A DNA stretch of 56,314 bases, the filler included, from Sphacelaria rigidula (Eukaryota), in NCBI GenBank assembly GCA_964200075.2. It is 6 parts of 6 records of this genome, joined end to end, with 100 filler letters (N's around TTAATTAATTAA, not from the genome) between each part and the next. Parts side by side here need not be neighbours in the genome. Positions count along the whole stretch, not along the records: positions 9,404 to 18,706 come from CAXNAA020008802.1; 5 more parts are not named here. One strand, 5' to 3'. A program made the position numbers and the translations under genes. Shown piece by piece: positions 2 through 44,949 of this stretch (position 1 is the first letter of the stretch; every line of letters begins with the position of its first letter). The notes below the pieces were generated by a model. It made no database searches. It was not told where the DNA came from and saw only the letters and a list, made by a program, of their open reading frames with translations.

Positions 2-1510
2 GCGGATGAACTCAACGTCTGTGAGCAGTTGATCCTTGTCGTCGCGGATATATTGCTGCTGTGAGCTACATGGTTTTCTCCCTTCGACAGCGATTCCCCT
101 CAGGTGCCGGTAGAAACCGCGTTGGTCACCTCTCGCGATGTGCGCTTCAAGTCGGCTGACGTACGTCTCGGAAAATCTCTCCACCGCATGTGCTCTAACA
201 CGACGAAGTTCCTTGTTGGCCTTCTTCAAAACTCTCTTGAGGTTGGTGTCAGTGGGCGTTGACATCGATGCCCTCCGTGCTTCTTCCCTCGCCATCCCTG
301 GAGCGTGGATCTTTGCCTTGGTCTCGGCACTCGCGCACCAGCCGTGGGAGCCTCGTTGGTTTCTCTCGTGGGGCGTGGTGTCTACTGCGGCAAATATCAG
401 CATCTTGGCGAGGCCTGCAGCCATGTCAGCGGCGGTAGCATCTATGGGCAAGGGGTCGAAAGGGAAGGCCGTTTGCAACGTCATTGCTCTCAACGTCGGG
501 TCAGCCATCAGCCTTTCAAGGTCGGCCGTTCTGCATCTGGATGCATATTTCCGTAACTTGTTATTGGGCGCAAAGCGACCACGGAGCCGGACCTTTGCAG
601 ATACGAGGTTATGGTCAGACTCGCGTTTGCCGGGTGGTGGGCGACGGACGGAAATGTTGCGTACGAGTTTTCGGTCCGTCTGTCCTGTGAGGATGTAGTC
701 AAGGCGATAGCGTCCCTTCCCGGCGTTGGGGCTTTGGAAAGTGTACGGTATGCCCCGCTTGGGTATTCTGCAGAACGTATTTAGCACAGCAAGGCGTTGT
801 TCCTCTGCAAAGGCCAGTAGCCTTCCACCGTTATTGTTCAGTACATCCCACCCGTATTCGCCAAGTACCTTGCTCTCATTCTCTCCGCCCCCCTCCCCTC
901 GTTTTCCAGTGCGGGCTTTAGCATCCATCATGACGAATAGATGTTCCTTGCCAGGTACTTGTGAGACGGTATCGGATACGTCATCCCAAAAGTTGTTCTT
1001 GTCGCGTAGCGGAGCGGTCTCCGTCGGGGCATATCCAACTACAAATGATACTGCGTTGGATTTGCCGTGTAGTTCAAGTGTCACCTTCATAAGTCGAGCA
1101 CTGAGGTACTCGACTGTGGCACCTTTCCCTCCCATCTCCTCCAGGATTGACTCCTTGGTAGCGATCCCTACCCCATGTTGTCCTGCCCTTCCCTTAGCCC
1201 CGCTTGTATCACCAGAACAAAATACCGTAAATCCCGCCGCACTGAACACCGATTGACCATCTCTCCTGGTTTCGTGTAACCCTACGATATCGCATCCCAG
1301 ATACTGACAAGGTTTCAGGACAATCTCACCGTGGCCAACGCCGTTCACACCTTTGAAAGCAAGCGTGCGATCATTGTAGGTGCCGACAGTAAGCTCGCCG
1401 ATCCTGGCCCTCGCCCTCGCAGTCTTTTTCCTCTTGTCGGCAGCACTCCGACCTGCTCGTCTCCTACGCCTCTTTTTCCTTGCGGCGTGTTTTTCTTCTT
1501 CTCCGTCCCT
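2..1510 (-). mobile_element. RTE-like non-LTR retrotransposon ORF, APE endonuclease domain plus linker (runs off the left edge)
   Basis: Manual minus-strand translation gives ELTVGTYNDRTL...CDIVGLHETRR...QHGVGI...LSARLM...VVGYAPT...FVMMDAKARTG...LNNNGGRLL...LNTF...RLDYIL...ESDHNLV, the ordered APE endonuclease motifs of RTE-type LINEs. No stop seen to the edge. The catalytic DxN reads DAK, so this copy is probably degenerate. Confidence 0.9.
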
Positions 1511-9303: not shown

Positions 9304-9403
9304 NNNNNNNNNNNNNNNNNNNNNNNNNNNNNNNNNNNNNNNNNNNNTTAATTAATTAANNNNNNNNNNNNNNNNNNNNNNNNNNNNNNNNNNNNNNNNN
9401 NNN
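9304..9403. other. Artificial contig linker (N44-TTAATTAATTAA-N44); same at 18707-18806, 28110-28209, 37512-37611, 46914-47013
   Basis: Identical 100-nt spacer with stops in all frames, separating contigs of decreasing near-equal length. Confidence 0.97.
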
Positions 9404-9416
9404 TCGCGACGTCGTC

Positions 9417-9490
9417 GGAATCCGAGGTCAATGGTCCTATGACTACGGCCTTCAAGTCATGAGTCCCCTCCCCCCCCCCCCCCCCTCCCC
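9417..9490 (+). mobile_element. Poly(C)-tailed LINE 3' stub, subfamily A (diverged)
   Basis: ggaatccgaggtcaatggtcctatgactacggcc...tcatgagt followed by a C-run. Confidence 0.65.
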
Positions 9491-10216
9491 ATCCCCGTGG
9501 ATGATCTCGCCATCCTCGTTTGCTCTTTTATGCCTTGTCGCCCTCAGGCTGGCAACGGCGTGTGCTTCCACGTGATGACGAGCCGTGAAACAAATTAGAG
9601 GAAAACGTTGCCGTGGCCGAAACTGACTTTATAGCAGACCTCTGACCCCACCATTACTTTTTTTTTTTTGTCTTTACCATTTCATGTCTCGCGATCACCT
9701 GACTTCCTTGAGCCCGTTGTTATCTGTGTTCCGTTTGCGCCGACAAGGAGTACCTCCTCGCCGCGGACGTGCGGTTCAGCACCTTGCAGCTGGCTCTGGA
9801 CGAAGATTGCATCGTGAAATTCACGCCCTTCTTCAGGTATAATCGAGGAAGTTCTAGAGCAGACGTATCTCAGGGTGCGTCGTCGCACGTTTCGATCTCT
9901 TGTGAGGGCAAGCGGCTGCCACCGCTCATTGAGTTTATTTGTCTCTGTCTTCTAAGCTCGCTCCATCCCGCTATTCCGCCGCACGTCCTTTTGGTACCTG
10001 CTTCAGCTGAACTCCTCTGCTATCAGCAGCCATCTCACCGATCGTCGGATTTATCCCGCCAGCTTCCAGCTGCGTGCGTATGGCTTTTGAAACGCCTCTC
10101 CAGGTTATATTGTCCCTTCTTGTTTTTTTTTCTTCTGTTTTTCGTCATGCTTTTATTATACCAATTACTTTTCTTTCTGGGTACGAATCCGCGGTGTCAT
10201 TGCTTTAACCCACCTA

Positions 10217-10326
10217 CCTGGTCCGGCGAAAACCCGGCGTGCTCCGTCCCGGCTTTGTAGGGATGCGAGGTCAATGGTCTGATGACTATGGCAGGCATGA
10301 TCATGAGTATGAGTACCTCTCCTCCC
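10217..10326 (+). mobile_element. Poly(C)-tailed LINE 3' stub, subfamily A
   Basis: ctggtccggcgaaaacccggcgtgctccgtcccggctttgtagggatgcgaggtcaatggtctgatgactatggcaggcatgatcatgagta plus a C-rich tail. Matches the copies at 18516, 37433 and 53934. Confidence 0.8.
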
Positions 10327-11385: not shown

Positions 11386-11416
<31 letters not shown>

Positions 11417-11428
11417 TGAGTCGAATCG

Positions 11429-11490
11429 TCTCGAAAGGGATGCGTGGTCAATGGTCAAATGACTAAGGCAAGCAACAAATGAGTACGCCT
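11429..11490 (+). mobile_element. Poly(C)-tailed LINE 3' stub, subfamily B, with 16-bp TSD
   Basis: tctcgaaagggatgcgtggtcaatggtcaaatgactaaggcaagcaacaaatgagtacgcct is flanked by cccctgagtcgaatcg at 11413-11428 and 11491-11506. Confidence 0.9.
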
Positions 11491-14433
11491 CCCCTGAGTC
11501 GAATCGATGCTACCAATTTCACCTTTATTCTCACGTGAGCGTTTTGTTGTGGGATTATTTCTTTATCCCGTCGAGATACGGCCTGTGCACCAAGGACACC
11601 AATTAAACATTAAACTGTACGTCGACAACATAACGTTGGAGCCTGACTCGTACACAACTGCTTGTTAACCTCGTGCGTGTCGACTTCTTGCCTGTCCATT
11701 TGAAGCTGCCAAGATCCTCTGTTGCCACTGGTGCCGCGTCTGCCTGTCGTCAGGTACCATGCTGCATGATCTGCATGTCTGTGTTCAATTTGAGCACGAG
11801 TTCTTTTCTGTCCACACGCCAGTCTGGTCGTCCAGACGCACAGTCGCAGTGTCGCTACGTGCCTGTGTTTCTCTACGGAAGGAACATAAGCATGTGACGG
11901 TTTCGAGCAGCACACGTCGAATCGCGTACTGGAAAAATATGGGAAATCGGGCACCGCGAGTATTGTGATAAAACGGCGGATCTTGTGTATAAAAATGAAA
12001 GATGAAACGGCTAATCTTGTGTGCAGAAAAAATGAATGAGGAATCATGCATCGACAGGAATAGAAGTGCCGTGCGAGACCCGATACACAGCTAGTGAGAT
12101 CGACTGCTATTCGCGTAGGATGCGACCAGAAACTCACCACTAGACGCCACAAACAGAGAAGGAAATGCGGCAGTCTGCCTGGAAGACACTACCGACCGTC
12201 TGTGGCGTCCACAGCCGCATGAAGCTCCAGCGTCATTTGAGGCCTTGGCAAGACTGCGGTCACACTCCAGGACGAATGGATTGTTCAACGTTGTCCCTTC
12301 CGTACCACCCTCCTTCCATTTTTTCTCCTGTTTTGCGCCGTCAAAACGCACCCGCACACCCTTGACTCCACGACGCTTGTACCGACAATCCGACATGGGG
12401 CAACACACAAACAGGAGAGTGGCCCTCCAGCCATGCTAGTGTTGGTGTCGTTGACGTCCGTGTCTCTAGATCTGGTGAAGTCCGACCCGTGGGAGGCGAC
12501 CGTGCAAGCGGCTGTGGGTGGTCTGGGCGTAAACATCAGTCATACGGGAGGAAAGGTGCGGATTCCTTCTCTGGGTGAGTTGAAGAATTATTCTATGCCG
12601 CTTGGGTATCTTTGCTCGCCCTGTAGTCTTGAGGGCGGAGGTCGTTTCTTGAATCGCGGTTGAAGCTTACGTCTCGTTCGTATTTTCGTTCATTGAAGAA
12701 AGTGTGTTGAACTTCTTTGGTGAATCCCCATTCGTTGAAAGGATGCAACATTGTTACTACCTTGAAGCGCAGCAGCTACTCCTCAACGGAGAGCAGAAAA
12801 TGGGGGAGGATCTGTCACGGGACCGTAAGAAGAAGGGTAGAGATTGTCACCATTCTTCATTTTGTGTCTCTTCCTCTCTTTGTGCGCATTGACTGATCTC
12901 CTCGCGCTTGTAGGGGTTTCAAAATTCCCACTGAGGGATTGAATCCGATCAAGTGGGGATGGTTACACGAGCAATGGTGATCATATCCACCTTCTCCCAC
13001 TTTTCACCGACGACATATGTACGGATTTGATCCTTATACTCACCGGCGAAGCTCTTGTCTTTTTGTTACCCTTTACCTGTCTGCTCTTTGCGATCGCGCT
13101 ACATGTATTCCGCCCCCTTTCGGATTTATCCCTTGCAAGGATGGTGTGATGGAGGCGTCCATAACACTCGTTGGTGTTCACCTCACCGATGTGCGTCCGG
13201 AGGCCCGCAACAACGCCTACACGTAAGCGGCGGGCAATCCTCAAAGCATCGCATGACCCCATCGCTACACCGAATTGATACAGCATCACGTTCACGTTGT
13301 CTACTGTACTGGCTACATGATTGAAGCTCTGAAACGAACCAGCAAACTATTCCGTGGAATTTGGTTGTCCCTGGCGGTATCTATCTCATTAACATCCGTC
13401 CGCAGACTTCGAACAAAGCCTTTGACATACGCGGCGAACAATTCTTCACCTTCGTATTTCCACTGCAGCGCACGGCACGGTTAGACGCTGCTGCACGAGG
13501 GCCATCATCGTCACTCACCACGGGTTTGATGCCGAAACGACTCTGGAGATGTTCGCACCCTGGACAAAAGACAACATTGCCAAAAACTATACTGCGTACA
13601 GTATCGGCTATTGCGTCTATTGCAATCGTCAATAGATCCCATACTGCACGCAGTACATTTGCTGACAATATAATCTATTGGCTAGGGTGTGGAGATGTTG
13701 CGAGCATTGTGTCCGAAGGCTAGCGGTGATGGAAGGAGGACTACAACGTTGAAACCTTTCCGAAGGAACGTCCTCCGTACCTTGTGAATCTTGCTCGTGC
13801 AGTGGCATGAGCGTCCTATGTATAGCGCTTTCGTTTTACCGAGTGTTTTGACCTTGAGGACGTTTATGCTATGACCACGACTAGATTCGTTGCAGATCAG
13901 GGCATGTGCGACAATGAATAAGTCAACCAATCAATAATATGAGGAACCTAGAAGTAGCTAAGTCTCCCAGGGAGCACTCACGACCACAATTCTGGTAGTC
14001 CTCCTGAACGCACGTCTTGATCAACGCCCCCTCGCCCGGATATGAATGATCGAGGGTCACTCAGGCGTACGCATTTGCGGTATGTATTCGTGTTCGTATG
14101 TCGTTCGTAATGCTCACTTGCAAGTACTGGAAAGCAGCCTTCGAGCTGACTTGATTAGTGTGAGAAAGCGTGAGGTCTTGAAGGGTCAACGTGTGGACAT
14201 CACTGCACTAAAAAAGGTACGTGACCTCCCTCCCCCCCCTCCCTCCGCGCCGACCCTAGCGGGATATTGGCACCGTTGCTACCATCATCGAAGGAGGCGT
14301 TGTTGGGTGCGCGGGATACCGACGACTATGATGGCCATGAACCTGACGGGATTGAGAGGACAGACGAAGGGCTGGCGCAAGGCGGGTCTAACGAGGTGAA
14401 GAAGGGAGTGGAGGCGATGGAAAGAGCAGGGGG

Positions 14434-16003
14434 GGGGGGGGGGGTACTCATTTGTTGCTTGCCTTCCTCGTTTGACCATTGACCACGCACCCCTTTCGAG
14501 ACAGAGCACCGCTCCTACTCCTAGTAGAGACACCTCCAACAGTTAGGCGCTCATCACGTTCCCCGTCCTGTTTCGCGGTCTGTGGTCACCATCTATCTCC
14601 TCTTGTAGCCATCGTTTTCTCCCTACTGTCTAGTGCGTCAAACGATTTCATGCCACCTTGGTATACTCCCCGTATTTCCCCCTCTAGCACGTTCCGTACC
14701 TCCTTGCATGGTTCACATTTTGCTTAATATATTATTTCTACTCTATTTCTTTTGCAACAGGGGCAGTTCTGTGATCTAATTTCTCCTCCTCGCGACTACT
14801 GGCATATATCTTCCTTCTTTCTGGCAGGTCCAGATCCCCCACCCGGAATCGACGTTTCGATGTTTTCGCGGAGTTGAGTGAGATATGGTTTCATTCCTAT
14901 CCCCTCTCTCGACCCCCCGAATATGCCTCGTCCACTTTCCGTCTCAAGCGCTTCTTTTCCCCTTATTTCTATCACGTTCCTTACCTTTGTCTTGTACGCC
15001 GCACTTTCATATATCATCTTGGTTTCCTCCCATCTCCTTCCTTGCTTTCTCAACTTCTCCATCCCACCTTATTCCAGCCTGCCCTTTTGTCATTTTTTCC
15101 CATACAGTCCAATCAACTATGGCTTGTAATCTCTGCCTCTCCATGTTGGTTACGCTATATTGCCATCTCATTTTTTCCATGTCTCTGTTTCAAGTGGGTA
15201 CACGTATTCCCAATCCTGCCCTCAATGCTGCGATACTCGTCATGCTTGAGCATTCAAGTATTTTCTCAGCTACTGTCATCTGTACTGTTTCCAAGCTTCG
15301 TCACAAACTTCGCGTTATCCTCCCATACTTGTGCATATTACAGTTTTGGTACCATCGCGTTCATCAAAATACATACCTTGATCTAAGTATCTAGGTGCGA
15401 GTCTCTGAGGATCACGTGCACCCTGCCTATCTGTGCCTTACCCTTTTCTACTACTTCATTCATGTGTACATCCCAAGAACAGTTTTTTCAGATCTTTACG
15501 CCAAGTATGTATACAGTTCTACGATCGGCAAGTTCTCCTTCTCCGACTTTCATTTAAACTCTACCGCATTCTTCTTATCTTCGTTACATGCAAGTACCGC
15601 GCATTCGTTCACGTTTGCCGTCACACTCGATTTACTTGTGTATTCTAGCGCCTTCTCTATTCCCTTCTGCGATCCTCTGGGTGTTTCTGATATCCCCACG
15701 AAATCATCCGCGAACATCAAACCTGATACCGTATCTTCCCCCACCTTGACTCCTTCCTTTGCTATTCCTACTGCTATGATCAGGTCATCAATAAAAACTT
15801 CGAATAAATTGGGTGATAACGTACATCCTTGTGCAACTCCTTGTGAAAAATAAAAATATTCCGATATTTCCCCGTATAGCATCATCGTACTTTTGGCAAA
15901 TTCTGTCATCTTCTTCACCATTCTTCACATCTTTGCTCCGATCCCAGTTCCCCCATATCGTTTTCTCCAGCCCAATTTCTCCATACTGTTGTCATACTGT
16001 GTC
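14434..16003 (-). mobile_element. 5'-truncated non-LTR retrotransposon (RT to 3' end) with poly(C) tail and 11-bp TSD
   Basis: RT motifs QGVAQGCTLSPNLFEVFIDDL and LMFADDFVG (ORF 15550-15921), then frameshifts and stops and a Cys-rich remnant near 14760. The 3' end reads ...AAGCAACAAATGAGTA(C)16. TSD agagcaggggg at 14423-14433 and 16004-16014. Confidence 0.93.
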
Positions 16004-17849
16004 AGAGCAGGGGGAGAGCGAAGGAGCTCTGGCTTTATGTGATCAATTTAAGGCAACGAGAAAAAAATACTGCGCCGTTCGTCGAGTTGTTCAAATATAC
16101 CTAACAATGGATTGCCATTGATCGACATAATTTAACAAATGGTTATAGGGTGAGAGACCGGAGCCCGCGATGCAGCTGAAGGCCAAGATAGACGAGGGTG
16201 CGACGGACGCGCACATAACGCTGGCGAGCTTCGCAGTCAATCTCATGGTGGAGCCCATTCAGGTATCATGCCAATGAACCGTGTTTGTTACCATGATCGC
16301 ATTCTTCACATGATATGTAACAGGTCAGATGAGGTGTCAACTCCTGTACCCGAGCGCGTTCAACGAGCTCATATTTTCCATTCGGACTACCCAAACACAC
16401 AAAGGGGCGGGATCTGATCCGAAAGTGATACACGCACTTACTTGTTGGGCTCTTGGAAATCATGCAAATGAGGTCATAATCCACCATGTATCTGTTTTTT
16501 AACGACTGTTGTACCCCCCGACCCGTAACGAATCACTCTCTCAGCTCCCCCGTCCTCTGTGCATGTGTTGTGTTTGTGTCGCAGGAATCTCTGATAGTGA
16601 TGACGGGGGTGAGCGGGGCGCTCACGCAAATGTTCGCGGGACCGGTGGGCACGTGCATTGACCAGGGCCTGGAGAATAACGACGAAGGCCTGAAGGATCT
16701 GGAAAAACTGGAATGCCTCGACCTTATCGACGAAGCAGAGCTTGTGCAAGACAGTGTTGGTGGAGTGGAGGATCCGACTAGCCCAGTAAGTGGTACCAAG
16801 GCTAACTGTTGAAAAGCAGCGCTTTGAAGTTTGATTTGTGTTGGATGATGTACGTATTCAGAGGCAATGCACTCGATGGGGAATCGGCGAATACATGTCC
16901 ACACTTTCCTGCTGCTAGCGAAATCCCTAGGATGTGTCGGAGCAATTTTGAGGCCTGTTTCACGCTCTGTCACAGTCTGAAACCTGCCGAAAACAACAAT
17001 TGCACACCACAAACAGTAGGACCAGAATCTTACTGAAAGTAGCGGATATACAAAAGTGTCCAGGTTGGAAGTGAAAACACTTGGGAATTTTCACAATGTG
17101 TGAATTCAACGAGTGTCTGACTTTGTGTAAAGACGTGTAAAGAAATCCCGTATTGTGCACTGCCGATCATTTTGATCCATTGTCAAACCAGGTGTATGCT
17201 GGTGCCCTGCTGTCCAGCTGGCCAGAAATAAAATATTCTTGACCTCTGAACACAGAGCAAGTTCCCTCCATAACTGCTTCGGGATTTTTCAGCCCGGGCC
17301 ACTTATCTCTGCGTATACTTGTATATATGATGAACCCTGGCAAGTGTTGTTAAACCTTCACTCTCCCTGTACTCTCTTTTCTGCTTCTTGGGTATGGTGT
17401 GGTCAGCAGGGTAGGCTTGATTTTGTTTTGATGTGGTCCGGAACAACTCATGTTCCAGCTTTTATGGAGCACCACTTGTAGCGAGCAAGCATGCAGATAT
17501 TTACCTGGGATTCACTCGTTCCGTCTCCCTCTCCCATCTTTATTGCTGCCCGTCACAACAAGGCGACCACGCTTGGTCCCGATATAAGGGAGGAGACTGG
17601 AACGATCTCAGCCACGGATGCAAAACCACCTGGCAATCTGGAGGCAGGAATAGTAGCCACGAGGAAGGGTGCTGATGGAGAGCTACAAGACCATGGGAAA
17701 AAGTCTTCTGTATCTGCGCGCGTTGAGTTTGACGATCTGAGGATCAACTTCATCGAGGTGCGGTGTTACGGTACATTTATCCCAATAGTGAAGACAGCCA
17801 AAACTTTGGTTTCGCAAGCTAGGGTCGCACAGGCTGCCCGAACTCATTC

Positions 17850-18052
17850 CCCCCCCCCATTCGCACTCTCCCTAATGATATGGTGAGACACTCATGAGGC
17901 AATGTGTTGCCCGTGGCCGTTTCTGGAAGTGGCGGTACCAGAAAATGAAGCAACTCATTGGAGGTTGTTCTCCATGCGAAAGACAAATAGCGTGCTTCGG
18001 ACGGAACAATTTCAGCAGGATGCCGCTCACCCTTCATGATTTGATTTGATTG
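17850..18052 (+). repeat. Interspersed repeat, second copy at 56211-56314
   Basis: atggtgagacactcatgaggcaatgtgttgcccgtggccgtttctggaagtggcggtaccagaaaatgaagcaactcat matches the end of the window. This copy ends in (gattt)n. Confidence 0.7.
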
Positions 18053-18175
18053 TCGCACTTTAACTGACCCCCCCAGGGTCCACCCGTGGTCTCATGATAA
18101 ACGTACCTAAGTAGAACGAAACTGCAACACGCTCTAAGAAGAAAAGAAAAAAAAGAACAGCAGCAGGGAAAAAAA

Positions 18176-18460
18176 AAACGCGCTTGACCTTACCAGTTCT
18201 TGTAAGTTTGTCATATTTATGGAACATGGAGTATTTTGAAACTTTCAGGTGTTGCATGGCCGTCGCCAGCTCGTGTCGTGAGATCTTTGGTTAATTTTAA
18301 TTACGAGCGAAACCCGTAAGTATTTTTTGTTTTGATTATTTAATTATAAACTTGGTAAATATCGCTATAAGCTTTTAGGTTTTGTAAAAACATGAACGTT
18401 TTATAAAGCATTTGTAAAATATTGAAAAAAAAATAGCTTGAGGAAGGTAAGGGTGAGGTT
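18176..18460 (+). pseudogene. Organellar (probably mitochondrial) SSU rRNA fragment inserted in the nucleus (NUMT)
   Basis: Contains accttaccag, caggtgttgcatggccgtcgccagctcgtgtcgtgagat...ggttaa...acgagcgaaaccc and gaggaaggtaagggtgaggt in order. These match conserved 16S-type blocks around V6-V7, with very AT-rich variable regions. Confidence 0.85.
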
Positions 18461-18515
18461 CATGCGACTCGCCAAACACATCACGGCTCTTCGCGCTTGG
18501 TGATCGATTGCGAGG

Positions 18516-18665
18516 CTGGTCCAGCGAAAACCCGGCGTCCTCCTTCCCGGCTTTGTAGGGATGCGAGATCAACGTTTATATGACTACGCCATGCAAAATC
18601 ATGAGCCCCCCCCCCCCCCCCCCCCCCCCCCCGCCACCCCCCCCCCCCCCCCCCCCCCCCCCCCC
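18516..18665 (+). mobile_element. Poly(C)-tailed LINE 3' stub, subfamily A
   Basis: Same about 90-nt core as 10217, ending tcatgag followed by a roughly 60-nt C-run. Confidence 0.8.
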
Positions 18666-18876
18666 GCGGGGCCCGCGCCGTCCTCGCCGCGCTGCTCGCT
18701 TTCGCGNNNNNNNNNNNNNNNNNNNNNNNNNNNNNNNNNNNNNNNNNNNNTTAATTAATTAANNNNNNNNNNNNNNNNNNNNNNNNNNNNNNNNNNNNNN
18801 NNNNNNTGTTTTGTTTGTGGGTTTGTTTTGAGTAGTGATGTGGAGAAAAAAGGGAGGGGTGAGGGCCAGAAGGGCG

Positions 18877-18910
<34 letters not shown>

Positions 18911-18913
<3 letters not shown>

Positions 18914-19457
18914 GAAGGGCGGGAGCTATGTGTCCAAACTTTTTCTCTCGGCAGATCCTTACCAGGACCCGGAAACATTCACACAGACGCGACACAACAT
19001 GATGGGAAAAAAGAGTTCCGCTCACCTCTCATGAGTTGCCCAATGTTCCCACTCGACACGTTGAGCCAAAGATAAATGGAGACAAACTCGAGAACAAATT
19101 ATCACCAAGTATATAATTTTTTCAGAAATTATATTTGGTGTCAATTTGTGGTCGAGTTTGTCTTCATTTCTCTTCGGCTTTACGTGTCGCGAGTGGGAAC
19201 GTTGGGCAACTCATGAGAGGTGAGCGGAACTCCTTTCCCCACTATGTTGTGTGTAAGGTTGGTGATAATTTGTTCCCGAGTTTGTCTTCATTTCTCTTCG
19301 GCTTTACGTGTCGAGTGGGAACGTTAGACAACTCGTGAGAGGTGAGCGGAACTCCTTTTTTCCATTATGTTGTGTCGCGTCTGTGTGAATTTTTCCGGGT
19401 CCTAGTAAGGATCTGTCAGGAGAACATTTTTGGACACATAGCCACCGCCCTTCCTAC
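18911..19457. mobile_element. Foldback/MITE-like palindrome with about 200-bp arms and an internal about 120-bp duplication
   Basis: 18911-19108 is the reverse complement of 19259-19457 (aggaagggcgggagctatgtgtccaaa / tttggacacatagccaccgcccttcct). 19136-19252 is an extra partial right arm. A G-run lies on the left and a C-run on the right. Confidence 0.85.
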
Positions 19458-19997
19458 CCCCCCCCCCCTCCCCCCACAATCCCGGAGGGCAATTTTTGGA
19501 AAATTATCATGACTTTTTTTTTGTAATAAATTGATAAAAAATCACTGAAAAAAATACCAAGTCTCGGGAGGCTCTACAATAGCGGTGGCAAGAACCGCAT
19601 GGTTCTATGTCCTTGTATATCTCGAGGACAACCATGTGTACGAGTGTACTACAGGAGGTATAACAAGAGAAGCGCCACATACAACAAGACACCGTATCGG
19701 GGGAGGGGTGAAATGGAAGGCAAGGGTTTCTAAGAAAAATGAAGACAAGGGCGGATATTAGGTATCCCTGCCACCTTCGCTGTGTAGAGACGGTGTGCAT
19801 ATCGAAATTTCTCCCCGCTCTCTCTGCACTCTCGGAACAGTATCCGGTATCCTACAGACTAAAACATGACCGAAAGGAAACACCGCCACCCCCCACTGGC
19901 TGTTATCGTTGCTTCAGCCGCAGCATTAACAAATCCGACAGCAGCTTTGGCGACATCGATGGAAATGAGGAAAAAGTCGATAACAACGTCAACGGTG

Positions 19998-20013
19998 ACA
20001 GCAGCAGCAACAG

Positions 20014-20046
<33 letters not shown>

Positions 20047-20079
20047 TAGCAGCAGCAACAGCAGTAGCAACAGCAGCAA

Positions 20080-20110
<31 letters not shown>

Positions 20111-20200
20111 AGCAGTAGCAACAGCAGTAGCAGCAGCAACAGCAGCAACAACAGCAACAACAGCAGCAACAGCAGTAGCAACAGCAGCAACAGCAGCAAT

Positions 20201-20231
<31 letters not shown>

Positions 20232-20328
20232 CCAGCAGCAATAGCAAGACCAGCAACAAGACCAGCAGCAGCAACAGCAGCAGCAGCAGCAAGGCCAGCA
20301 GCAGCAGCAAGGCCAGCAGCAACAAGAC

Positions 20329-20360
<32 letters not shown>

Positions 20361-20830
20361 AGGCCAGCAGCAGCAACAGTGGCACCAGCACCACCACCAG
20401 CAGCAAGGCCAGCAGCAGCAGCAGCAGCAGCAGCAACAACATCTGCAGCAGCAGTAGCGGCGGCGGCGGCGGTAACATCGTCCGCAGCAGCAACAGTGGC
20501 AGCAGCAACAGCAGCAGCAGCGGTGGCGGCGGCGGCGGTGATCGTAGCTGTAGCGGCAACCGTTCTAGCAACTGCAACAGCATCAGCAGCAAGAGCAGCA
20601 GCAAGAGCAGCCACAGAAGCGGCGGCGGCGGGAGTAGCAACAGCCGCAGCAACAGCCGCAGCAGCAGCAACAGTAGCAGCAGCAACAGCGGTGGCAGCGG
20701 CTGCGGCACCGATAGCGACAGTAGTAGCAGCAGCCGACTCCGTGTCACCCGCAGGGGCAGCAACAACAGCAACAGCCGCAGCAGGAGAAACAGCAGTAGC
20801 AGTAGCAGTAGCAGTAGCAGCAGCACCAGC
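19998..20830. repeat. Long degenerate (CAG/CAA/CGG)n trinucleotide array
   Basis: About 830 bp of agc/aac/agt/ggc triplets, open in several frames on both strands. Confidence 0.95.
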
Positions 20831-21044
20831 AGGGGGGGGGTGAGGGGGGGCGTGAAGAGGACCAGGGAAGAAGACAGTGTGAGTGTGATTGGGGCGTTTC
20901 CCTTGTCCTGATTTTAGATACTGTACACCATTGAGTGTATGCACCGTGCTTTTTCCTTCTTTTACACCATCATGTTACAGTGGTGTACGTGATACTGAAG
21001 GGGTGATGACATCGTTTTCTCTGGTCCACTATGGGCCGTTATTA

Positions 21045-28050: not shown

Positions 28051-29258
28051 AGCCATGCCACGATGGGGGGGGGGGGGGGGGGGGGGGGTTTTTTTTTTTG
28101 TTCTTTTGTNNNNNNNNNNNNNNNNNNNNNNNNNNNNNNNNNNNNNNNNNNNNTTAATTAATTAANNNNNNNNNNNNNNNNNNNNNNNNNNNNNNNNNNN
28201 NNNNNNNNNCTGTGGTGATGTGCTGAGCCATGTGTAAACAGCCCACCCACGCTCTTCTGGACGCGTCCGGCGGGTGCGGGGTAGGGAGTTGAGTTAATTC
28301 GACTTGATGAAAATCCTTCATCTCCAGAAATGAAGGAATGATCAGAGCACAGCACTAGAGATGGATTTCCAACGGTTTCGCACCTCTTCTCGAACATTTA
28401 GACCGCAACTTTTAACTTGAGGCGAGAAAATTTAGCCATCAAAAGTGGTTTTGGCAATTTGAGACAGTTCTCGCCCGTTTTGCTGGCATGTCGGCAATTT
28501 CATCAGATTTTCCTGCTTTTCTTCTTCGAAATCTTCGAAGAACACCACAATTTCCTTTTTTCCGTATATCTGATGCGCTGCTCCCTTCAAAACTCGGAAT
28601 CCTATTTTGCAACAATCAAGTGAGAAGACCAATAATCTTTGTGTCAAGTTGGACGACCTGGGGGAAATTGGGAGCGACTTCTCGGCAGGCAACATACTCC
28701 CAACACCTTGGAAGCGCACAAGAAGAATGTAAAACAACGCAAAGGTGCCTCGGAGACGCTCTCTTGTCTCAACTAGTTGGGCCAGCCTGTGACCCATCCT
28801 TTCCAGATCCAGCCGTGGCTACTACATTCAAGAACATAGCGTCCCGAAATAGAGATGCCAAGTCTTACTGTGGCTGGAACACCGAAGGGAAGGAGTCGCT
28901 TACAGTAAGATAAATTGTGTGGCAGAATCCACGAAAGCTTTGGCCAAAACTTGTGTTCAGCGATTTCCATTTCACCAGTAGCAGTCTAGGCGCTCGATTT
29001 CGAAACACCTGTATCGACACGTTTCCCCTCAGTTCTCTTGTAGTAAGGAATATGGTTACGCCGAGCATCCAGTGACGATCGTCGTTGTTCTTGTCCTTTA
29101 TTCCCCACACAACGCAACCGCGTTTTGCACATGGAAAATCCACACGAAAACGGAATCCTTCAACTTCTCGACATGACGAACAACAACAACTAATACAGCC
29201 AAACTATAAGTGCAGAGAACTGTAATACAGGTGAAACACCAAGCACTCAGTTACCCAC

Positions 29259-35699: not shown

Positions 35700-37432
35700 G
35701 CGGCGGCAATGAGGAGATGCCAACCCCATCCCCCGCAACCTTCCCCCCCCCCCCCCCCCCCCCCCCCCACCCAACCCACAAGCACGCGCCTGCCCCGCAC
35801 GCACNNNNNNNNNNCCTTCGCCCCCCGGGCGCGGGGCGGACTGAGGGAGTCCCCACCCCCCCCCCCCCAACCCCCCCCCCCCCCCCCCCGAATTTCGGAC
35901 AAAATTACATGGACTGTTGTGTCAACAGGACCCACGAGTAACCTGCTCGATTGATTAAAATGACCACTGGGCTCGTGTTGAACCATCGATCACGCTAGCA
36001 GCATTGGTAGGACACCGTACCATACTGCCCCGTTCATGTTGGTACTGTGTGTAAAGAGCAAGACCCAAACGTGTAGGAATAGTAACCGAAGTTCCTGTTG
36101 GTTACATACTCACAATTTGCCCGCTACCCGTACGATGTATTTTGGGTAGATGATGTTTCTATCTCAAACAAGAGAACTCATTCCGCAAGCACTGGCCAAC
36201 CGCGCCAGCTCGTGTGGTCACACTTCGGTCACATGTTTCGGGCTAGCAACTTTGAGCGGAAAGAATGGAAGGGAGAAGGGATCAGAGCCGTCGATACACG
36301 ATGCCACTTTGTTTCAAAGCATATCCGCTTTGATCTTGGCACTTGTTGGTTTTTGTCGCAGGAGACGGCGGGTATGTATGTGTTTCATGTGCACGGGCAT
36401 TTTCTACTTATAGTAGCAGATTGGAATACCATGAAGAAGGGCCGAAGCTTTGTGTCGTCTTGATTATCGCGACGGTCGAGCGCACCAGGTTTTACTTCTG
36501 ATGGATTTAGATTATAAATATCGCAAAAACGCCGTTCTGCATATGCGATAGGACGACCAAGCAATACGGCACGAGCCGCACCCATTGTTGGTTTCATACA
36601 TAGCTGTTCGGGTGGTCCAATGCGGTCACAAAATCGAGGCGCTAGCTCACATGGGTATCATCATATTTGCCCCGACGAAGAACAGTCAGGGAGACAGGAC
36701 CCAAATTGCTCGTGTGGGTTGGGAACGAACCCTCCCTGCTCCCGCATCCTATGCCATGACTTAAAATATCTACAATTTTCACTTTCCACAGCGTGGAAGA
36801 CCTTTCACAACAAGAATTCAGTGAACGGGACGTATGGCAAACAACGCGGTAGCATCGTTCCGTGAAAAGGGAGCCTCATTGTGCGGCGGGTACTCTAAGA
36901 AACGCACCCGACGCGCAGAAAGTTCTCTTCGACTGTGATCGAAAGAGAAAACAGCCCAAAGGCTCAACGGAAGTTGAAACATAGAGGCGCTTCGGGCCCC
37001 ACCCAAACTGCACCACTTTATGAAGGCATACAGCATGTGCATATCATACATGGAAACGAGAATGTTTTTGTCCACAGGCAAATGGATTTCCCGGACCCAC
37101 GCTAGGGCTACTGGTCGATATGTCAGGTGCTCCTATAGAAGTGGTGTCTGCTGTACTTTGCCATAGTGTAAGCACACTGCGGCCTGAAGCCCCCGCTGTT
37201 CATGTTTGTGCGCCTCGCGATGTGTGTACTGCCTTGCTCCAATCTCCGTACAAAAATGAAGCAAAATGAACACTAGAGCCTCTCCTGAATAAAAGTAATT
37301 ATGATTTCCTACACTGAAGTCAAATAACTCATTTTCCACAGAGAAGTCTAGTGACTATTCTATGATTAACTAAAAACAGACAATTTCCTGGTGCCATACG
37401 AAACTCAAGAACATGCCCCCCCCCCCCCATAG

Positions 37433-37478
37433 CCTGATCCGGCGAGAACCCGGCGTGCTCCGTCCCGGCTTTGTAGGG
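37433..37478 (+). mobile_element. Subfamily A stub (partial), directly after a C13 run
   Basis: cctgatccggcgagaacccggcgtgctccgtcccggctttgtaggg, close to the contig end. Confidence 0.75.
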
Positions 37479-37611
37479 GCGGACCCCCGACGAGGTTGGG
37501 GTCGCGTGGCGNNNNNNNNNNNNNNNNNNNNNNNNNNNNNNNNNNNNNNNNNNNNTTAATTAATTAANNNNNNNNNNNNNNNNNNNNNNNNNNNNNNNNN
37601 NNNNNNNNNNN

Positions 37612-37754: not shown

Positions 37755-39089
37755 GCCTCTATCTCGGTATCCCAATCTGTACTCTTTTGGGGGGCTAGAA
37801 TAGGTGTCTCGCCTTCTTCTCCGTTGCCGAAGAGTCTGACGTGGTCGGATGCGAGGGACGCGGACGCGATCAAAGCGCTCGTGTCGTGATCGGAGTGCTG
37901 TTCGCGAATCTGCAGGTAGTCGTCTACGTACACTGACGTGAAGAAATTATCATGTAAGCCTCCTGCTGAGTGTGGGGTGGTCGTAGAATCTTTTGGATTT
38001 GGTGTGGGGTCCCCCGTTTCCTACCTATCGGCTATCTTGACGTGAGCTGTCATCTCCTTGCCTTCTGGCAGTAAAACCGCGTTGCCAATGCTCGTCTTGC
38101 AGTGGGCGTGTTCTGCCGCCGATGCCAATACTCCCCAGAAACTTGGCGAGCCTGACCAGCCGAACGTGAGCCGGAAGTCACACACGACCAGGTTGTCCAC
38201 AACGTAGCCGAATTGATGGGCGTGGTCTGGATCTATCCTCACATTACGGAACGCATCCGATACATCTGCCTTTGCCATTAGTATGCGTTTTTTAGGGTAT
38301 TTTTTTCGCAACGAAATGAGCTCCTTGAGGAACTTATGCAGCGCTTCTCCGCATAAACAGGCCGACACGTCTTCAGGGTTTGTGTCGCCGGTCGACCCTC
38401 TTTCTCTTTTCCGAATGCGTTGCGCGTCGAAATACAAATCGTTGATTATGCGGACTTTGTGTGTGGTTACTGCTCCCAGGGGGGACAACCGCAGGTTCGG
38501 GTTTTTTCGGGCGGCCGACGTTTCGCCTATCAGACATTTTCCCCTGCCTACATCATCTCCCAGTTATTCCCAAATGTTTGGTTGTTGATCGTGGGCGCTA
38601 CTGTGGTTGTCATACTGTAGTGCGCAGTCGAGGTTCTCTTGCGTGGGGGATGCAGTGACTGCCGCGCCGACGGGAACACCTGTGGATACAATAGTAACGA
38701 GTTCGTCTGTCTGCGGGAAACCCTTTCTCTCCCCGAAATACTTCCTGATCTCGTGCGGGTCTGCCGGCGGCGTGACTAGCGGTCCCCCGATAGACCTCGC
38801 GACATCCCCAATGCGTCCACCGTGTTTTTCTGTGATGCGCGTGCAGATATTTGCGAGTCTGTACAGTATGTCTTCCTTTTTCTTGGCTCTGATACCTGAT
38901 TTTTTCAACTCTCCTTTTTCTGAGTAGCACAGTGCCTCTAGTTCAGCGTCAGACTGTCCCGATCCATCTCCACCGTTAGGAGGCGGCTCCGCCGCCGACC
39001 GGCTAGACTGAAAACCAATACATGATACACCTGTTTTCCGTCCTGCACCAGACGCCGAACTACTGGCTCCTTGATCCGTTGAGGAATTA

Positions 39090-39570
39090 CTAGCGAGGTA
39101 ACTGGCCCCTGGTTCTGCGGAAGGGTAACTGGTCCTATGCTCACTGAGGTGGACACTGATCCTACGATCACTGGTGAAAACCTGTCCTCGTGTTTACTAG
39201 GGGGGTAACTGGCCCCACGTTCAGTGAAGGGATAACTGGCCTCATAGTCAGAAATGGGGTGACTGGCCCCATGGTCACTACTGGGGTAACTGACCCCACG
39301 GTTAGTGAAGGGATAACTGACCCCATGATCACTTGAGGGGTAACTGGCCCCACGGTCGCTGCTGGGGTAACTGACCCCATGATCGTTCAAGGGGTAACTG
39401 GCCCCACTGTCAGTGAAGGGGTAACTGGCCCCATGATCGCTCAACAGGTAACTGGCCCCACGGTCGCTGAAGGGGTAACTGGCCCTACGGTCACTGAAGG
39501 GGTAACTGGCCCCACGGTCACTGAAGACTTAACTGGCCCCACGTTCACGAATGGCATAACTGGTCCCTGC
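39090..39570. repeat. 30-bp tandem repeat inside the retroelement pol N-terminal region
   Basis: ggggtaactggccccacggtcactgaa-type units, about 12 clear copies at 39200-39570 plus degenerate ones. They encode 10-aa repeats (VGPVTP...). Confidence 0.9.
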
Positions 39571-40215
39571 TGCATGCAAAACTGTCGGGGTTTGCTCTAG
39601 TGTGCCAGGGGTTACTGTTGTCGGCGGCGCTACGCCGACCGCCTGTGAGAGCGAAACTGAGTGGGTTTTTGCTATCTGGCGGGTTCCGCGATCGTGTCCT
39701 GAGTTAACTGACGTGACAAACTGCCGAGGGCACACTGATACCCCGTTTCCTTCGTACCCCTGATTTCCCATGTGTTCACAACCCCGGTCGCAAGGCACCG
39801 CTACCTCTGTCTGCTCTCTACATCTCCCACCATGAAACACGGTCGCTGGGACCGACCCAGGTGAAGGTGCCCCGATAAGCCTCGCGGACCTAGAGGCGCC
39901 CGCAAACATCGTGTTTACGTCGTTACCCGCTTCTCCTGTCAATGTCGGCCCTGCCGGTGGGTAGAGCCCGCGCCCTCATCCGCTCCCGTTTCCTCTCCCG
40001 GCGGCGGCGCCACCCCCCCTTCCCCCGCCGCGCCCTCCGTAGCTGTGTGAATACCGTGCTACCGGTGCCGGGGCGGGCGCCGGTTGCTGGTGCTGGTGAG
40101 CAGGCAGTTGTTGGACCTGAGTTAGTGCCTACTATGCCGGGGTTACCGGAGGCTGCGGGGGCGGAGGCGGTGGTGGTGTCTGGTTCGGCGCCGGCGCTGT
40201 CGGCGTCGGCGTAGC

Positions 40216-41484
40216 CTACGCCTGCCCGGATGCCAGCGGGGACACGATATCGTGTGAGAACCTGCAGTTGTTGCGCGTGCACGGTTGGTTTTGCCAGTGG
40301 TAAACGCAAACGTGCTTCGGAGTCTGCCACTGGATCTTTCTCTGCACGAAGGTCGACGGGGGTCCCGCCGGCGTGGTGTTGCTCGAAGAGGGGGGAGCTG
40401 GGGGGCCTGCCTGCGACGTCGCTTTCCGTTTTTTGTTGGGTTTTGCCTCGCCGACCGGCCAGAATGCAGACCTCTCGACGAGGCAGTTAGGCCCGTCCTC
40501 GGTGACGAGGGCTTTTAGTTTTGTAAAAGCTGGCGCCGCTACCGGTTCCCCCGTCATCGACGGTGGAACTACGGCCGGGTATGTCCTCCGGAGCTGTTGT
40601 GCCTGAAGTGCCACCCGGTAGAAGAACTCCTCTATGCTAGTGTCCATGGCTGTTGAAAGCTTGTCGCGCACCGTCGTTTTATGTGAGTACAGTGGTGTGT
40701 AATGATAATCTGTGTACTCCCTTACTTGGTTAGCTACTGATTCGAACTCCGACTGGAGGGCGCGCGTGCGTGTCTTGCATAACTCGGGAGCGTGCTCCAT
40801 GGGGGTGAGCAAAAGCGTGAGCAGGGACGCGACAAACGTGTGAAAATGCATATCAGCCGGCATGTCCATGGGCGTTGAGCCTGGTGGCACCGGTTTTTTT
40901 AAGCTCATTGTCTTGAAATTGGCCAGGGTTTGCAGCTGGTTGGCGGACGCGTGCGTAACGTGAGCCACCTTCTTGAGCGTGAGTTGTTGTAGGTGGAAAG
41001 TGAGATCTTCACTGACGTCAAAGCCCCCTCTCAGGAGGAAAAACATGGGCCCAGTGGTGGCCCGCCACGAGTCGACGGCACGTTTGGCATTTGCTTTCAT
41101 ACCCGCCTGTTCAGCTGCGGTCCGTTGTGCCGCCGCTTGCGCGCCAGCTGCTGAAACCTGCGGTTGTGGTGGTTGTTGCCACCCGTTCCCGATCTGTAGC
41201 GGTGGTTGCTGTGGGGGTGCCTGCGGGAGTGATAGGAGCTGCGGCTGCTGGTTATTCTCGACAGCCTGCAGGCGATTGGCCAACTGGGCCAATACGGCCA
41301 GCATGTGCTGCTGGAACACCTGCTGCAACATGACGGGTGCTTGCAGTAGTACGCCCTGAGGTTGGTCGACTGCCGCTCCTGCTGCCGCGTGTGGGTTATT
41401 ATGCCCTGCCATCCCCTCGCCGCCTTGGTGTGCTTGGCTCCCGCCGCCGTCTACGGGAGGTCCAACGGCCCCCACCCCAGCCAT
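40216..41484 (-). CDS. Gag-like ORF1 (422 aa) with C-terminal CCCH zinc finger
   Basis: Intact ORF with a Q/P-rich N-terminus, ending CVYHWQNQPCTRNNCRFSH (C-x8-C-x4-C-x3-H), upstream of the RT. Confidence 0.8.
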   Translation of the reverse strand: MAGVGAVGPPVDGGGSQAHQGGEGMAGHNNPHAAAGAAVDQPQGVLLQAPVMLQQVFQQHMLAVLAQLANRLQAVENNQQPQLLSLPQAPPQQPPLQIGNGWQQPPQPQVSAAGAQAAAQRTAAEQAGMKANAKRAVDSWRATTGPMFFLLRGGFDVSEDLTFHLQQLTLKKVAHVTHASANQLQTLANFKTMSLKKPVPPGSTPMDMPADMHFHTFVASLLTLLLTPMEHAPELCKTRTRALQSEFESVANQVREYTDYHYTPLYSHKTTVRDKLSTAMDTSIEEFFYRVALQAQQLRRTYPAVVPPSMTGEPVAAPAFTKLKALVTEDGPNCLVERSAFWPVGEAKPNKKRKATSQAGPPAPPSSSNTTPAGPPSTFVQRKIQWQTPKHVCVYHWQNQPCTRNNCRFSHDIVSPLASGQA

Positions 41485-41907
41485 GCCGTTTCCGTGTGGT
41501 GCCAGATTTTCATCTCTGCCTGCTTGAGCCGCGCCCCCGCCAATGCCAGATATGATGTAAAAGTCGATCGATCCTCTGCGAAGCGCGCTAGTTCTTGCCT
41601 ACTTCTCCCTACTTGTGATGCTTTTACCAGTAGGCCGCTGCTGGATGACGGCTACTTGTTACTGGTGATAGTATCTGTAGTCGTGTGTGCGGCAACCTAG
41701 CTGCGATGGCCAACTTTTCTACTGGCAGCGGCCCTGCAGCTGAGAAACAAGGACAGACAACGTACCGTTTTCTGTACGTACGTCCCACATTGTCGGAATT
41801 CATATACGCCTCCGCAAACACCGCTTTCATACTGAACGCTACATACAAGGGCCGAAACTGCACTTTTCAACAAGGTTTTATTTTTTATACATAAGGAGTA
41901 GCCTTTC

Positions 41908-42352: not shown

Positions 42353-43412
42353 TACACCATCACATATAATTTGAGTGCACGATGGAGCCCTGCACCCTAC
42401 AGTTTCAGAGGAATATGGGGTATCAATTGAAACAGAAGGTGCTGGGAAGGCGTCGGCGGAAATTGTTCGCGCCAATGATGCGTGAAGCAGCGGTGCACAG
42501 CTTCATCCTTTGTTTTTTGTGTTTCAGTCGACTTGTACAACATGGGTCTGGCGTTCTGTGGTACTACCATAGCACAAGAACGGGTTTGCCGTGGGCCAGT
42601 CACTGGCTGACTACTTCAGGTGTTTCCCGCCTTTTTTGTCCCGTCTACTTCGTTGGAACCTCGTCATTCTTCTGCGGTTTCCCGTTTTTTCGGCTGTAGC
42701 GTGTAGTTCGACGGCTGGTCCGTCGAATGAGGAATTTGAAGGGAAAAAGAGGGAGTTGTGACTTTAACACGGCGGGACGCTTGATGCGGAAGTGCCGAAT
42801 GCTGAACCCCAGTTGCCACTGGCTGATTGCATGCAGAGCATTTTGCACATGTTGTACATGGTCACTACACCTCGAAGGGATGTAATAGAGTATATATGCC
42901 AAGGTTAGTCGTTCCGTTGCACGACATCCGAAAACGAGAAAATAACACACGGTAGCCCGCGACCACAAAGTACGAAATACATTATGGCCTGCTGTTCAAC
43001 TATATGCGTGTGTGTCGGCCCGGACGTGCGATTCTTTCGCTCTTATCCCCATGTGCGGCCAGCCTTGGCTTCCTCGTTCCCATTCGCCGCTCCTCACGAT
43101 GAGTCTCTTCTGCTGCATGCTACAGGCAAATTATTTTGAATCGCTCATCACTTTGAATGACATTTTAATATATACTAAGTGAAGATAACACAAGCGAGAT
43201 ACCGCAATTTTTCTTGCCTCCAGTGGCGCTCCCGCGAGGCCCGCTCACCAGCAGGGGGGGGCGTTGGGGCTCCGCCACCGATGATGAACTGGAAAACAAT
43301 CGATGTACTAGCCACGCCAGCGGTCAGTTTAAACTTAGCTGGCCGAAGCTGCGAGTCCATAGCCCTAATAGTATCATTTTGCACACAAAACAAAAAGAAC
43401 CGTGTTCCGTCA

Positions 43413-43715
43413 GACACTTTCTACGATACCCCCCCCCCAAAAAAACCCCCAGCCCATAAGTGTAACAAAAAAGATGGTCATACAGCTCCTGATGTTTAGG
43501 TTCAGGCTGCATGAAGTGCCTCATGTGGGCGACACTCGCGAGAAGGCACCCAAGCGTGGGAATTTCCGGCTGCTCGTTGTGCTCGGCTAATTCCAGTTCG
43601 ATTTACATCAAGAGTTTGCCTCCCCGAACCAGGCACTTTTGTTTTGGGGGGGGGGGGTGTACTCATGATCATGCATGCCCTTTTGGTGGAGGGGAGGAGT
43701 ATCGTAGAAAGTGTC
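43413..43715. mobile_element. GACAC-TIR MITE with 4-bp TSD (gtca)
   Basis: TIR gacactttctacgata / tatcgtagaaagtgtc; gtca at 43409-43412 and 43716-43719. Confidence 0.88.
43646..43680 (-). mobile_element. Minimal subfamily A stub nested in the MITE G-run
   Basis: The minus strand reads gggcatgcatgatcatgagtaca(C)12, with ttttgg duplicated on both sides. The segment is absent from the other two MITE copies. Confidence 0.75.
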
Positions 43716-44707
43716 GTCAGGGTGAGGGCTTGAAGACTTCGTTGAAGTCCGACAATTGTGTATGATAGGGGTAAAGTTGGGTGTCATGAGCAACACGAGA
43801 GGTGCGCAATGTACCCAACACCGTTGCAACGATTTACCTTTTTGCCGTGCATGTTTAATTCCCATGCCCAGGGAGTCACGTGCTGATGTGGCGGAGACGT
43901 GCCGCCAAGTGTACGACACTTGGACCTCAGAGGAGGAAGTACCCGCGGCGAGGACCCACCTCTCTCGACCATCGAAAGGGTGCGGAAGATCTGCTGCTGG
44001 CGACCTAGAGCTTTTTCGCTGGCGCACCCGAGGGAGTTGAATGTTGTCAGGCATTTTCCAACCCTCGCCTTCTAGGCACCTATCTACAAGGGAATCTCAT
44101 CCCATGAAACAAGTAAAGTGGTGCAGCTCGCCGAGGTAGTGCAGTTGCAGTGTAAGCGTTGCGAGATGACACACGGGGACTGGGGGTGACTCGATTGAAG
44201 AGCAGTCACCACACGATCCCTTACGGTTCGGACCACATCAGGTGTGGCGGCATGGTGACGAGGATCGCCGATTTTCATGGAATTGGCTCTACATGATACT
44301 CTCGTCTTTTTTACCCTCTCTTCAATTTTGCCCTTGTTTGGATTGAGTATTTTTATAGTGTGCTGTGTTTACTACTCGGAGTATATTGTTTCTTGCATAT
44401 TTGCCGCTTTTCGAGTTAGCGATGGTTTTCGTTTAGTCACGCTGGGTATACGGCAACAGTCAGGCAAGCAAGCGAAAATCAACGGTGAAGGTGCGGGTGG
44501 GGACGATGGACCGAAAGGAACAGTAACATTAGTCATGCTCGCATGCGACATATCCGATTTATATGCCCGCAGTGCGCTTTTGATCGTAGGATGTGCGACA
44601 TTGCCGACAGTCGAGCAATTCGCCTGGATGTCGTGACAGTCGACCTTATATCGCCGGATGCCGGTGCAGTCGCCCAAGAAAATGCTCGAGAGTGGAAAGC
44701 TTCAAGT

Positions 44708-44949
44708 GACACTTTTTACGATAGCCCCCCCCCATAACCAGCTGGAAGTGTCACGAAAAAAATGACCATATAGCGCCTGATGCCGGGTTCAGGCTGCATG
44801 AAGCACCTCATATTGGCGACATTGGCTAGAACGAACCCAAGCGTGGGAATTCCCGGCTTCTCGTTNNNNNNNNNNCATTTCGATTTACGTCAAGATTTTG
44901 CCTCCCAAAATCATGCACTTTTGGGGGGGGGGCTATCGTAGAAAGTGTC
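44708..44949. mobile_element. GACAC-TIR MITE with 4-bp TSD (aagt)
   Basis: gacactttttacgatagccccc ... gggggctatcgtagaaagtgtc; aagt at 44704-44707 and 44950-44953. Confidence 0.88.

Follow-up and report, generated by a model that had tools for sequence, protein, structure and literature searches.

Mammalian L1, a long interspersed element (LINE), ends in a poly(A) tail and nicks its target at TTTT/AA, the T tract then priming on the A tail. How a LINE that ends in a run of C could integrate is the question raised by a locus in the brown alga Sphacelaria rigidula. The DNA analysed here (assembly GCA_964200075.2; 56,314 nt, six parts joined end to end, hereafter the window) holds, at 14434–16003 on the minus strand, an old 5'-truncated copy of a non-long-terminal-repeat (non-LTR) retrotransposon with a reverse transcriptase (RT) domain. 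On the plus strand, a run of 16 G (14429–14444) is followed by the reverse complement of ...AAATGAGTA, and the sequence read at the element's 3' end contained no A run beyond the C run. Eleven bases of the run (14434–14444, minus strand; C in the element, G on the plus strand) lie outside the target-site duplication (TSD), and the other five belong to the TSD copy adjoining the tail (14423–14433), which is AGAGCAGGGGG on the plus strand and C5 followed by TGCTCT on the element strand. The identical 11-mer recurs at 16004–16014, at the truncated 5' end of the body (14445–16003, minus strand).

The two TSD copies form an exact direct repeat (D10) with a spacing of 1581 nt. Two further exact repeats of 11–12 nt (D7 and D11), which are due to chance, lie within the same pyrimidine-rich 1.85 kb, so TSD length alone is weak evidence and placement decides: one copy of D10 borders on the tail, and the second is found 7 nt past the last RT-homologous position (15996), for which our own arithmetic (~320 placements over 4^11) gives a chance probability of ~1e-4. 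A repeat search around the copy found no long direct or terminal repeats. An open reading frame (ORF) at 15550–15924 (minus strand) matches Pfam RVT_1 (E 3.1e-8, 34 bits versus a cutoff of 29.6), and the decayed body aligns with residues 822–1360 of an intact relative of 1360 aa (P0005), up to the very end of the ORF, so that the copy is 5'-truncated, within the RT domain. Many stop codons interrupt it in all three frames, and it shares 74–76% nucleotide identity with intact copies, which makes the insertion old. The focal element belongs to a brown-alga LINE family, of which it is an old and dead copy. An RT-encoding non-LTR copy with a C16 end, no poly(A) and an exact 11-bp TSD had been described in the initial annotation, and the sequence, the RVT_1 match and D10 confirm each of these points.

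A protein search with the focal RT fragment returned 17 relatives, including the full-length P0005 and P0008 (1328 aa), one protein attributed to Ectocarpus sp. CCAP 1310/34 and another from an Undaria gene set. Their clusters comprise numerous intact ORFs that come from separate contigs and have the same length, with members from two Ectocarpus species. Intact members encode a single ORF of 1328–1360 aa with an N-terminal extension, an apurinic/apyrimidinic endonuclease (APE)-type domain, an RT and a C-terminal Cys/His motif. All three full-length relatives (P0005, P0008 and P0014) match RVT_1 (E 1e-31 to 4e-37) as well as the endonuclease domains Exo_endo_phos and Exo_endo_phos_2, the focal copy being truncated and without an endonuclease; the best matches among solved structures were L1 ORF2p (E 6.6e-21) and R2 (E 8.8e-20). 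The LINE-type RT and, in the relatives, the N-terminal APE-like endonuclease are those of APE-type LINEs, and 5' truncation and TSDs of variable length (11 and 12 bp) are likewise LINE features. The family ORF ends in ...KASNK and its TGA stop is the TGA of AAATGAGTA; this stop lies 4 nt ahead of the tail, with GTAC alone between it and the G/C-run part, so there is virtually no 3' untranslated region (UTR).

According to its main text, PMC12477816 describes seven RTE-X LINE families with 16,418 copies in Ectocarpus, together with a ~600-bp non-autonomous family of >6000 copies (RTEX-N1_Ec32) whose 3' end is common with RTEX-1 and RTEX-2 (RTEX-1_Ec32 and RTEX-2_Ec32). As in the present case, the host is a brown alga, the LINEs are abundant and encode endonuclease and RT, and a very abundant short non-autonomous element carries the 3' end of an autonomous LINE, an arrangement that is also found in the window; moreover, Ectocarpus species are among the sources of the focal RT's relatives. 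By this described arrangement, the focal family is probably already catalogued as Ectocarpus RTE-X, a label taken from that paper's description of abundant Ectocarpus LINEs with a 3'-sharing non-autonomous partner. The main text of PMC12477816 makes no mention of a C tail or of LINE target choice; its figures or supplement ('terminal motifs', Fig. 1C) may note the tail.

The C tail proved to be a trait of the family, as the initial annotation had supposed. An nhmmer profile of the last 100 nt of the LINE gave eight matches in the window at E<1e-3, and all eight were followed by C-rich sequence, namely C16, CGCCTCCCC, two 22-nt C-rich tails, C/T-rich tails of 16 and 11 nt, C4TC16 and C27GCCAC29; C12 likewise follows a 23-nt mini-insert, which makes a ninth case. 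Besides the focal copy, these matches include three short copies on the plus strand: W2 (11429–11494), a 5'-truncated copy that retains the last ~57 nt of the LINE and has the tail CGCCTCCCC; W3 (47038–47112), with its body at 47038–47090 and a 22-nt C-rich tail at 47091–47112; and W4 (53849–53935), with a 22-nt C-rich tail at 53914–53935 and a 5' flank of C5TC5. Public contigs were scanned with a pattern of 21 letters, stopping at GAGTA so that no tail is presupposed. Six contigs matched (four metagenome, two genome) and four were true copies, all of them C-tailed (CG+C8, CG+C10, CG+C13 and CGCCTC7TCCTCCC), the tail being kept across subfamilies 79% and 96% identical. The remaining two matches (L002 and L005) were due to chance and showed no LINE homology. 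Viral contigs yielded no match, either by DNA pattern or by protein, and the metagenome-assembled genome holding one of the true copies (L006) contains just that one. Altogether a C-rich tail was present in 13 of 13 inspected copies, a small set in which none ends in an A run as L1-like LINEs do. In public sequencing runs, 204 (X1) and 134 (X4) contigs run on past 11494 with a consensus start of C17 or C12, and ahead of 14429, 388 (X1), 297 (X3) and 60 (X5) contigs go on with 15–21 extra G; the C tail holds for hundreds of further copies in these four runs.

Tail length varies from 4 to >50 between copies. Such variation would be compatible with an untemplated run, whether G was put onto the nicked DNA, by the RT or a terminal transferase, ahead of engagement with the RNA, or the RNA itself received its C tail from a nucleotidyl transferase, and untemplated addition by a LINE RT is reportedly known for R2. 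However, the scattered T, A and G interruptions and the fixed CGCC start look like inherited, mutating sequence, and the full-length, presumably source, copies hold the run in their DNA, so that transcripts through the run would contain a C run. We therefore consider untemplated addition very improbable.

The insertion sites show a bias that corresponds to the tail. On the element strand, the 5' flank had a run of C4 or longer in its final 16 nt at eight of the nine window junctions versus 4.6% of all 16-nt windows, which supports the G/C-run bias at targets put forward in the initial annotation (C on the element strand corresponding to G on the primed strand). The clearest examples are two, the focal copy and the mini-insert as set against a paralogous empty site: in both, the entire C run stands at the start of the TSD, which is what would be expected if a G-ended 3'-OH primed on a C tail. 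The mini-insert, 23 nt from the end of a related 3' domain (43658–43680), and the C12 that follows it (43646–43657; together 43646–43680, minus strand) sit at the C run of a miniature inverted-repeat transposable element (MITE)-like repeat. The filled site, within the repeat at 43590–43725, reads as a degenerate 15-nt C-rich stretch with AAAA, the mini-insert, and C12 with AAAA, and the empty site in the paralogue (44923–44932 within 44876–44960) reads ...GATAG C10 AAAAG.... The base after the presumed nick was A in the focal copy, C in the mini-insert and G inside a longer run in two other copies; given this variability, GGGGG/A, the nick site originally proposed, is not a consensus. The full-length copies in L006 and L003 had seemed to carry short TSDs at their 5' ends (C4G and C3T); these were rejected because wider alignment showed that homology extends further upstream. 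Neither contig therefore holds a 5' junction, and both stand outside the junction count.

These flanks bear equally on how much of the run is brought by the element. C24, C30, C13 and C10 runs lie on the 5' side of four copies (the C24 run, 47014–47037, is abutted by the 5' end of W3 beside a joint between parts), the paralogous empty site had C10 beforehand, and G/C runs of at least 9 nt are frequent in the window (28 versus 8 A/T runs). A homopolymer-specific LINE could account for this, if it inserted into existing long (C)n/(G)n tracts, much as microsatellite-specific LINEs do with their own repeats, and its 3' run were mostly target DNA, through the TSD or read-through, the element itself adding little beyond CGCC. 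Yet the 5' TSD copy of the focal element has only C5 and its 3' end C16, W2 has a 12-nt non-C TSD that separates the run from the element, and the copies in unrelated contigs all have 8–13 C after a fixed CG, which fits a templated tail better than site-dependent flanks. Among the few sites, eight of nine junctions are near C4 or longer, but the focal target had only C5 and one junction is without such a run. We regard this explanation as unlikely. The initial annotation derived 11 of the 16 bases of the focal run from the element; the site that already held C10 shows that the runs are not in every case brought by the element.

The LINE profile also matched four non-LINE units in the window, all on the plus strand, which have only the last 60–75 nt in common with the LINE, a sharing of the 3' end like that in stringent partnerships between LINEs and short interspersed elements (SINEs). 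They are a unit at 10218–10326 with a C/T-rich tail (CCTCTCCTCCC; E 3.2e-9), a diverged unit directly behind W4 at 53943–54036 with a C-rich tail (E 3.9e-7), a related 3' domain at 9404–9496 (E 1.2e-4) whose 5' side was lost at a joint and which is followed by C4TC16 and more C-rich sequence, and a longer element at 17859–18665 (17859–18033 and 18459–18605; E 2.6e-4) with a tail of C27GCCAC29 (18606–18665) and a C10 run at its putative 5' edge, a boundary placed by eye. The start of another non-autonomous unit (37434–37511, plus strand), 5 nt behind a C13 run (37416–37428), is cut at a joint. Between the two parts of the longer element lies an AT-rich insert of 425 bp (18034–18458), itself highly repeated in the sequencing runs as judged by depth and joints. 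The summed contig depth over the non-autonomous units was thousands of times that of unique DNA in the public runs, which, since depth is not copy number, indicates merely that they are highly repeated. The 3' ~60–75 nt held in common with these elements suggest that the LINE machinery recognises a specific 3' end, unlike that of L1. The notion of a G:C counterpart of L1 holds for the homopolymer tail complementary to the primed strand and probably not for template recognition.

From the observed tails, shared 3' domain and flank bias we infer a nick position, pairing, templating and slippage that would combine as follows. The RNA template would end 4 nt past the stop codon, in a short fixed CG and then a C-rich run of variable length instead of poly(A), and the protein would select it through the conserved 3' domain ('stringent' recognition), so that small non-autonomous elements would be carried along. 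The endonuclease would cut the opposite strand within or at a G tract, the resulting 3'-OH, which ends in G, would pair with the C run of the RNA and prime reverse transcription, and slippage on the homopolymer would vary the tail length; old tails and other G/C homopolymers would in turn become new targets. This joint mechanism, with a templated CG(C)n RNA end, template choice by the 3' domain, G-tract/C-run pairing and slippage, is the one we favour, with somewhat better than even confidence. For a small sample of sequences, G-tract priming on a templated C tail is plausible, and the evidence as a whole suggests that base pairing between tail and target guides the insertion of C-tailed elements.

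Several observations weigh against this mechanism. The tail is known from DNA copies, and the focal tail lacks the G of the usual CG start. There are nine junctions only, all from one repeat-rich 56-kb window; five of their boundaries (J4 and J6–J9) were placed by eye, the flank of J8 is the tail of the neighbouring unit, and the junctions are not independent, so the binomial probability of 2e-10 for the excess of C runs overstates the case. The junction at 10218 has only CCC and is the sole one without C4 or longer. The TSD of W2 is 12 bp (11417–11428 and 11495–11506), or 16 bp if the four preceding C are counted, and the C30 run (11387–11416) lies directly upstream and mostly outside it, so the nick may fall beside a G tract and not at its end. 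The C10 of the paralogous empty site means that part of a run can be derived from the target and is not all borne by the element, and the search for an orthologous empty site was negative: 15905–16003 is bridged by contigs in each of X1, X3 and X4, so all three have the focal insertion, X5 having no contig piece there. Folding likewise did not support a structured 3' domain, either by RNAalifold (-3.2 kcal/mol, with 2 of 14 pairs compensatory) or by single folds of the 3' ends (z -0.39, -1.08, +0.56 and +0.02), and Rfam gave no match in the window. Finally, only ~9 of the 28 G/C runs of at least 9 nt (17 C and 11 G, up to 38 nt; the A/T runs are 3 A and 5 T) touch C-tailed elements, the others lying in MITE-like repeats or being unexplained; G/C runs that are common for other reasons raise the local background.

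The last of these points, with most runs in the window unrelated to the elements and assembly gaps beside several runs, could also be taken to mean that the tail has no role in integration. Homopolymers expand by slippage, and the runs might have grown by slippage from the remains of a short C-rich 3' end, or be homopolymer artefacts of assembly or sequencing, the flank bias then reflecting DNA that is dense in repeats and rich in C runs. The focal run, however, is internal, bounded by unique DNA and a TSD; the same tails recur in contigs of four separate assemblies and in four sequencing runs; and eight of nine flanks against 4.6% is a large excess even when discounted. We consider the absence of any role quite improbable.

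Like mammalian L1, the family combines an APE endonuclease with an RT, shows 5' truncation, has TSDs that vary in length and start with the tail's base, and ends in a homopolymer complementary to the primed strand. It differs in having a tail of C instead of A, which cannot stem from polyadenylation, as well as almost no 3'UTR and a single ORF. The microsatellite LINEs of the R1/R4 groups (Waldo, Mino, Kibi, Koshi and Dong) have di- to tetranucleotide targets, are strictly site-specific and have targets that pair with the RNA 3' end. They share with the present family a tail that matches the target repeat and insertion into simple repeats, whereas here C5 sufficed for the focal copy and one junction has no run. 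In template recognition the contrast is with L1, which, in the account of PMC3747384, recognises little beyond poly(A), while the 3' domain of this family is common to non-autonomous elements. The stringent LINE/SINE pairs covered in the same review, eel UnaL2/UnaSINE1 with (TGTAA)n and the I factor with (TAA)n (PMC3747384), are closer in this respect, with a non-A tail, a LINE 3' end common to short non-autonomous elements and a variable tail length that is consistent with slippage; here, however, a single C forms the repeat unit, the 3' domain held in common is coding, and the stem-loop typical of those pairs is the structure for which folding gave no support. Plant p-SINE and Au SINEs, which are there said to end in poly(T) and for which dependence on a tail-recognising partner LINE is proposed (PMC3747384), also have a homopolymer tail other than A, but theirs is T and the partner LINE is unknown, whereas here the autonomous partner is identified.

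The tails described in the portions of the literature that were searched are poly(A), poly(T) (plant SINEs) and tandem repeats, and no printed account of a poly(C)-tailed LINE was found there, with the limit that the spelling 'poly(C)' is not searchable, so that absence in print is not established. Candidate reports on C tracts concerned unrelated features, namely internal C tracts of L1 3'UTRs and a terminal inverted repeat (TIR) of a DNA transposon. The earlier impression that no such LINE had been described thus agrees with the literature searched as far as the tail is concerned, although the family itself is probably catalogued, judging by the main text of PMC12477816.

The known LINE tails are poly(A) or short tandem repeats, from which a C homopolymer departs. 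If true, a C tail combined with a G-tract target bias would be an independent natural replicate of the T-tract/poly(A) pairing of L1, and such a replicate would help to separate endonuclease choice from choice by primer–template pairing; it would also be a natural test of the rule that complementarity between tail and primer sets LINE target choice. The C tail further raises the question of how a Pol II-type transcript gains or keeps a C-run end. A broader and more tentative proposal, to which we give less than even weight, is that in a brown-alga LINE lineage and its non-autonomous dependants, which number thousands of copies, a templated poly(C) has replaced poly(A), giving a 3' end formed without polyadenylation and integration through pairing of the tail with a G tract at the nick, so that the lineage both uses and seeds the G/C tracts, unusually common in the genomes concerned. 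C-tailed elements may explain part of the G/C homopolymer load of brown algae and of the assembly gaps that arise from runs. In practice, annotators and TSD finders built to look for A tails will place the ends of these highly abundant elements wrongly.

The window contains other features besides these insertions. The MITE-like repeat of ~250–300 bp is present in two copies (43408–43715 and 44705–44950), one of which is the target of the mini-insert, and its TIRs (...GACACTTTCTACGATA) are each followed inwards by a run of C9–10 or G10–12. The five joints between parts (9304–9403, 18707–18806, 28110–28209, 37512–37611 and 46914–47013) consist of 44 N, TTAATTAATTAA and 44 N; one of them abuts C24 directly and two others lie ~21–41 nt from long C/G runs, and there are four further 10-N gaps. 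The assembly seems to break at G/C homopolymers. Pfam returned nothing on five other ORFs of the window, and the next three features lack a Pfam match. A weak similarity to the endonuclease part of P0008 and P0014 (24–25% identity, E 3e-6 to 2e-7) at 602–1429 (minus strand) may be the remnant of another LINE. At 19712–20911 (plus strand) lies an open frame of 399 aa, nearly all Ser/Asn (AGC/AAC-type repeats), with overlapping frames that are all open too. A series of long open frames at 38021–41598 (minus strand; 180, 209, 196, 187 and 460 aa) resembles, by eye, a retroelement gag/pol remnant. At 18879–19468 a fold-back element has arms of ~250 bp, with G32 outside the left arm and C12 outside the right; it could represent either a TIR element ending in homopolymers or a pair of C-tailed retroposons placed head to head. 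In L006 (reverse strand), positions 1–215, which lie upstream of the full-length copy of the LINE, hold tandem units of ~80 nt rich in ...CATAGACAT...CCAGTTTTTTTT, which may be a repeated 5'UTR/promoter region or unrelated flank.

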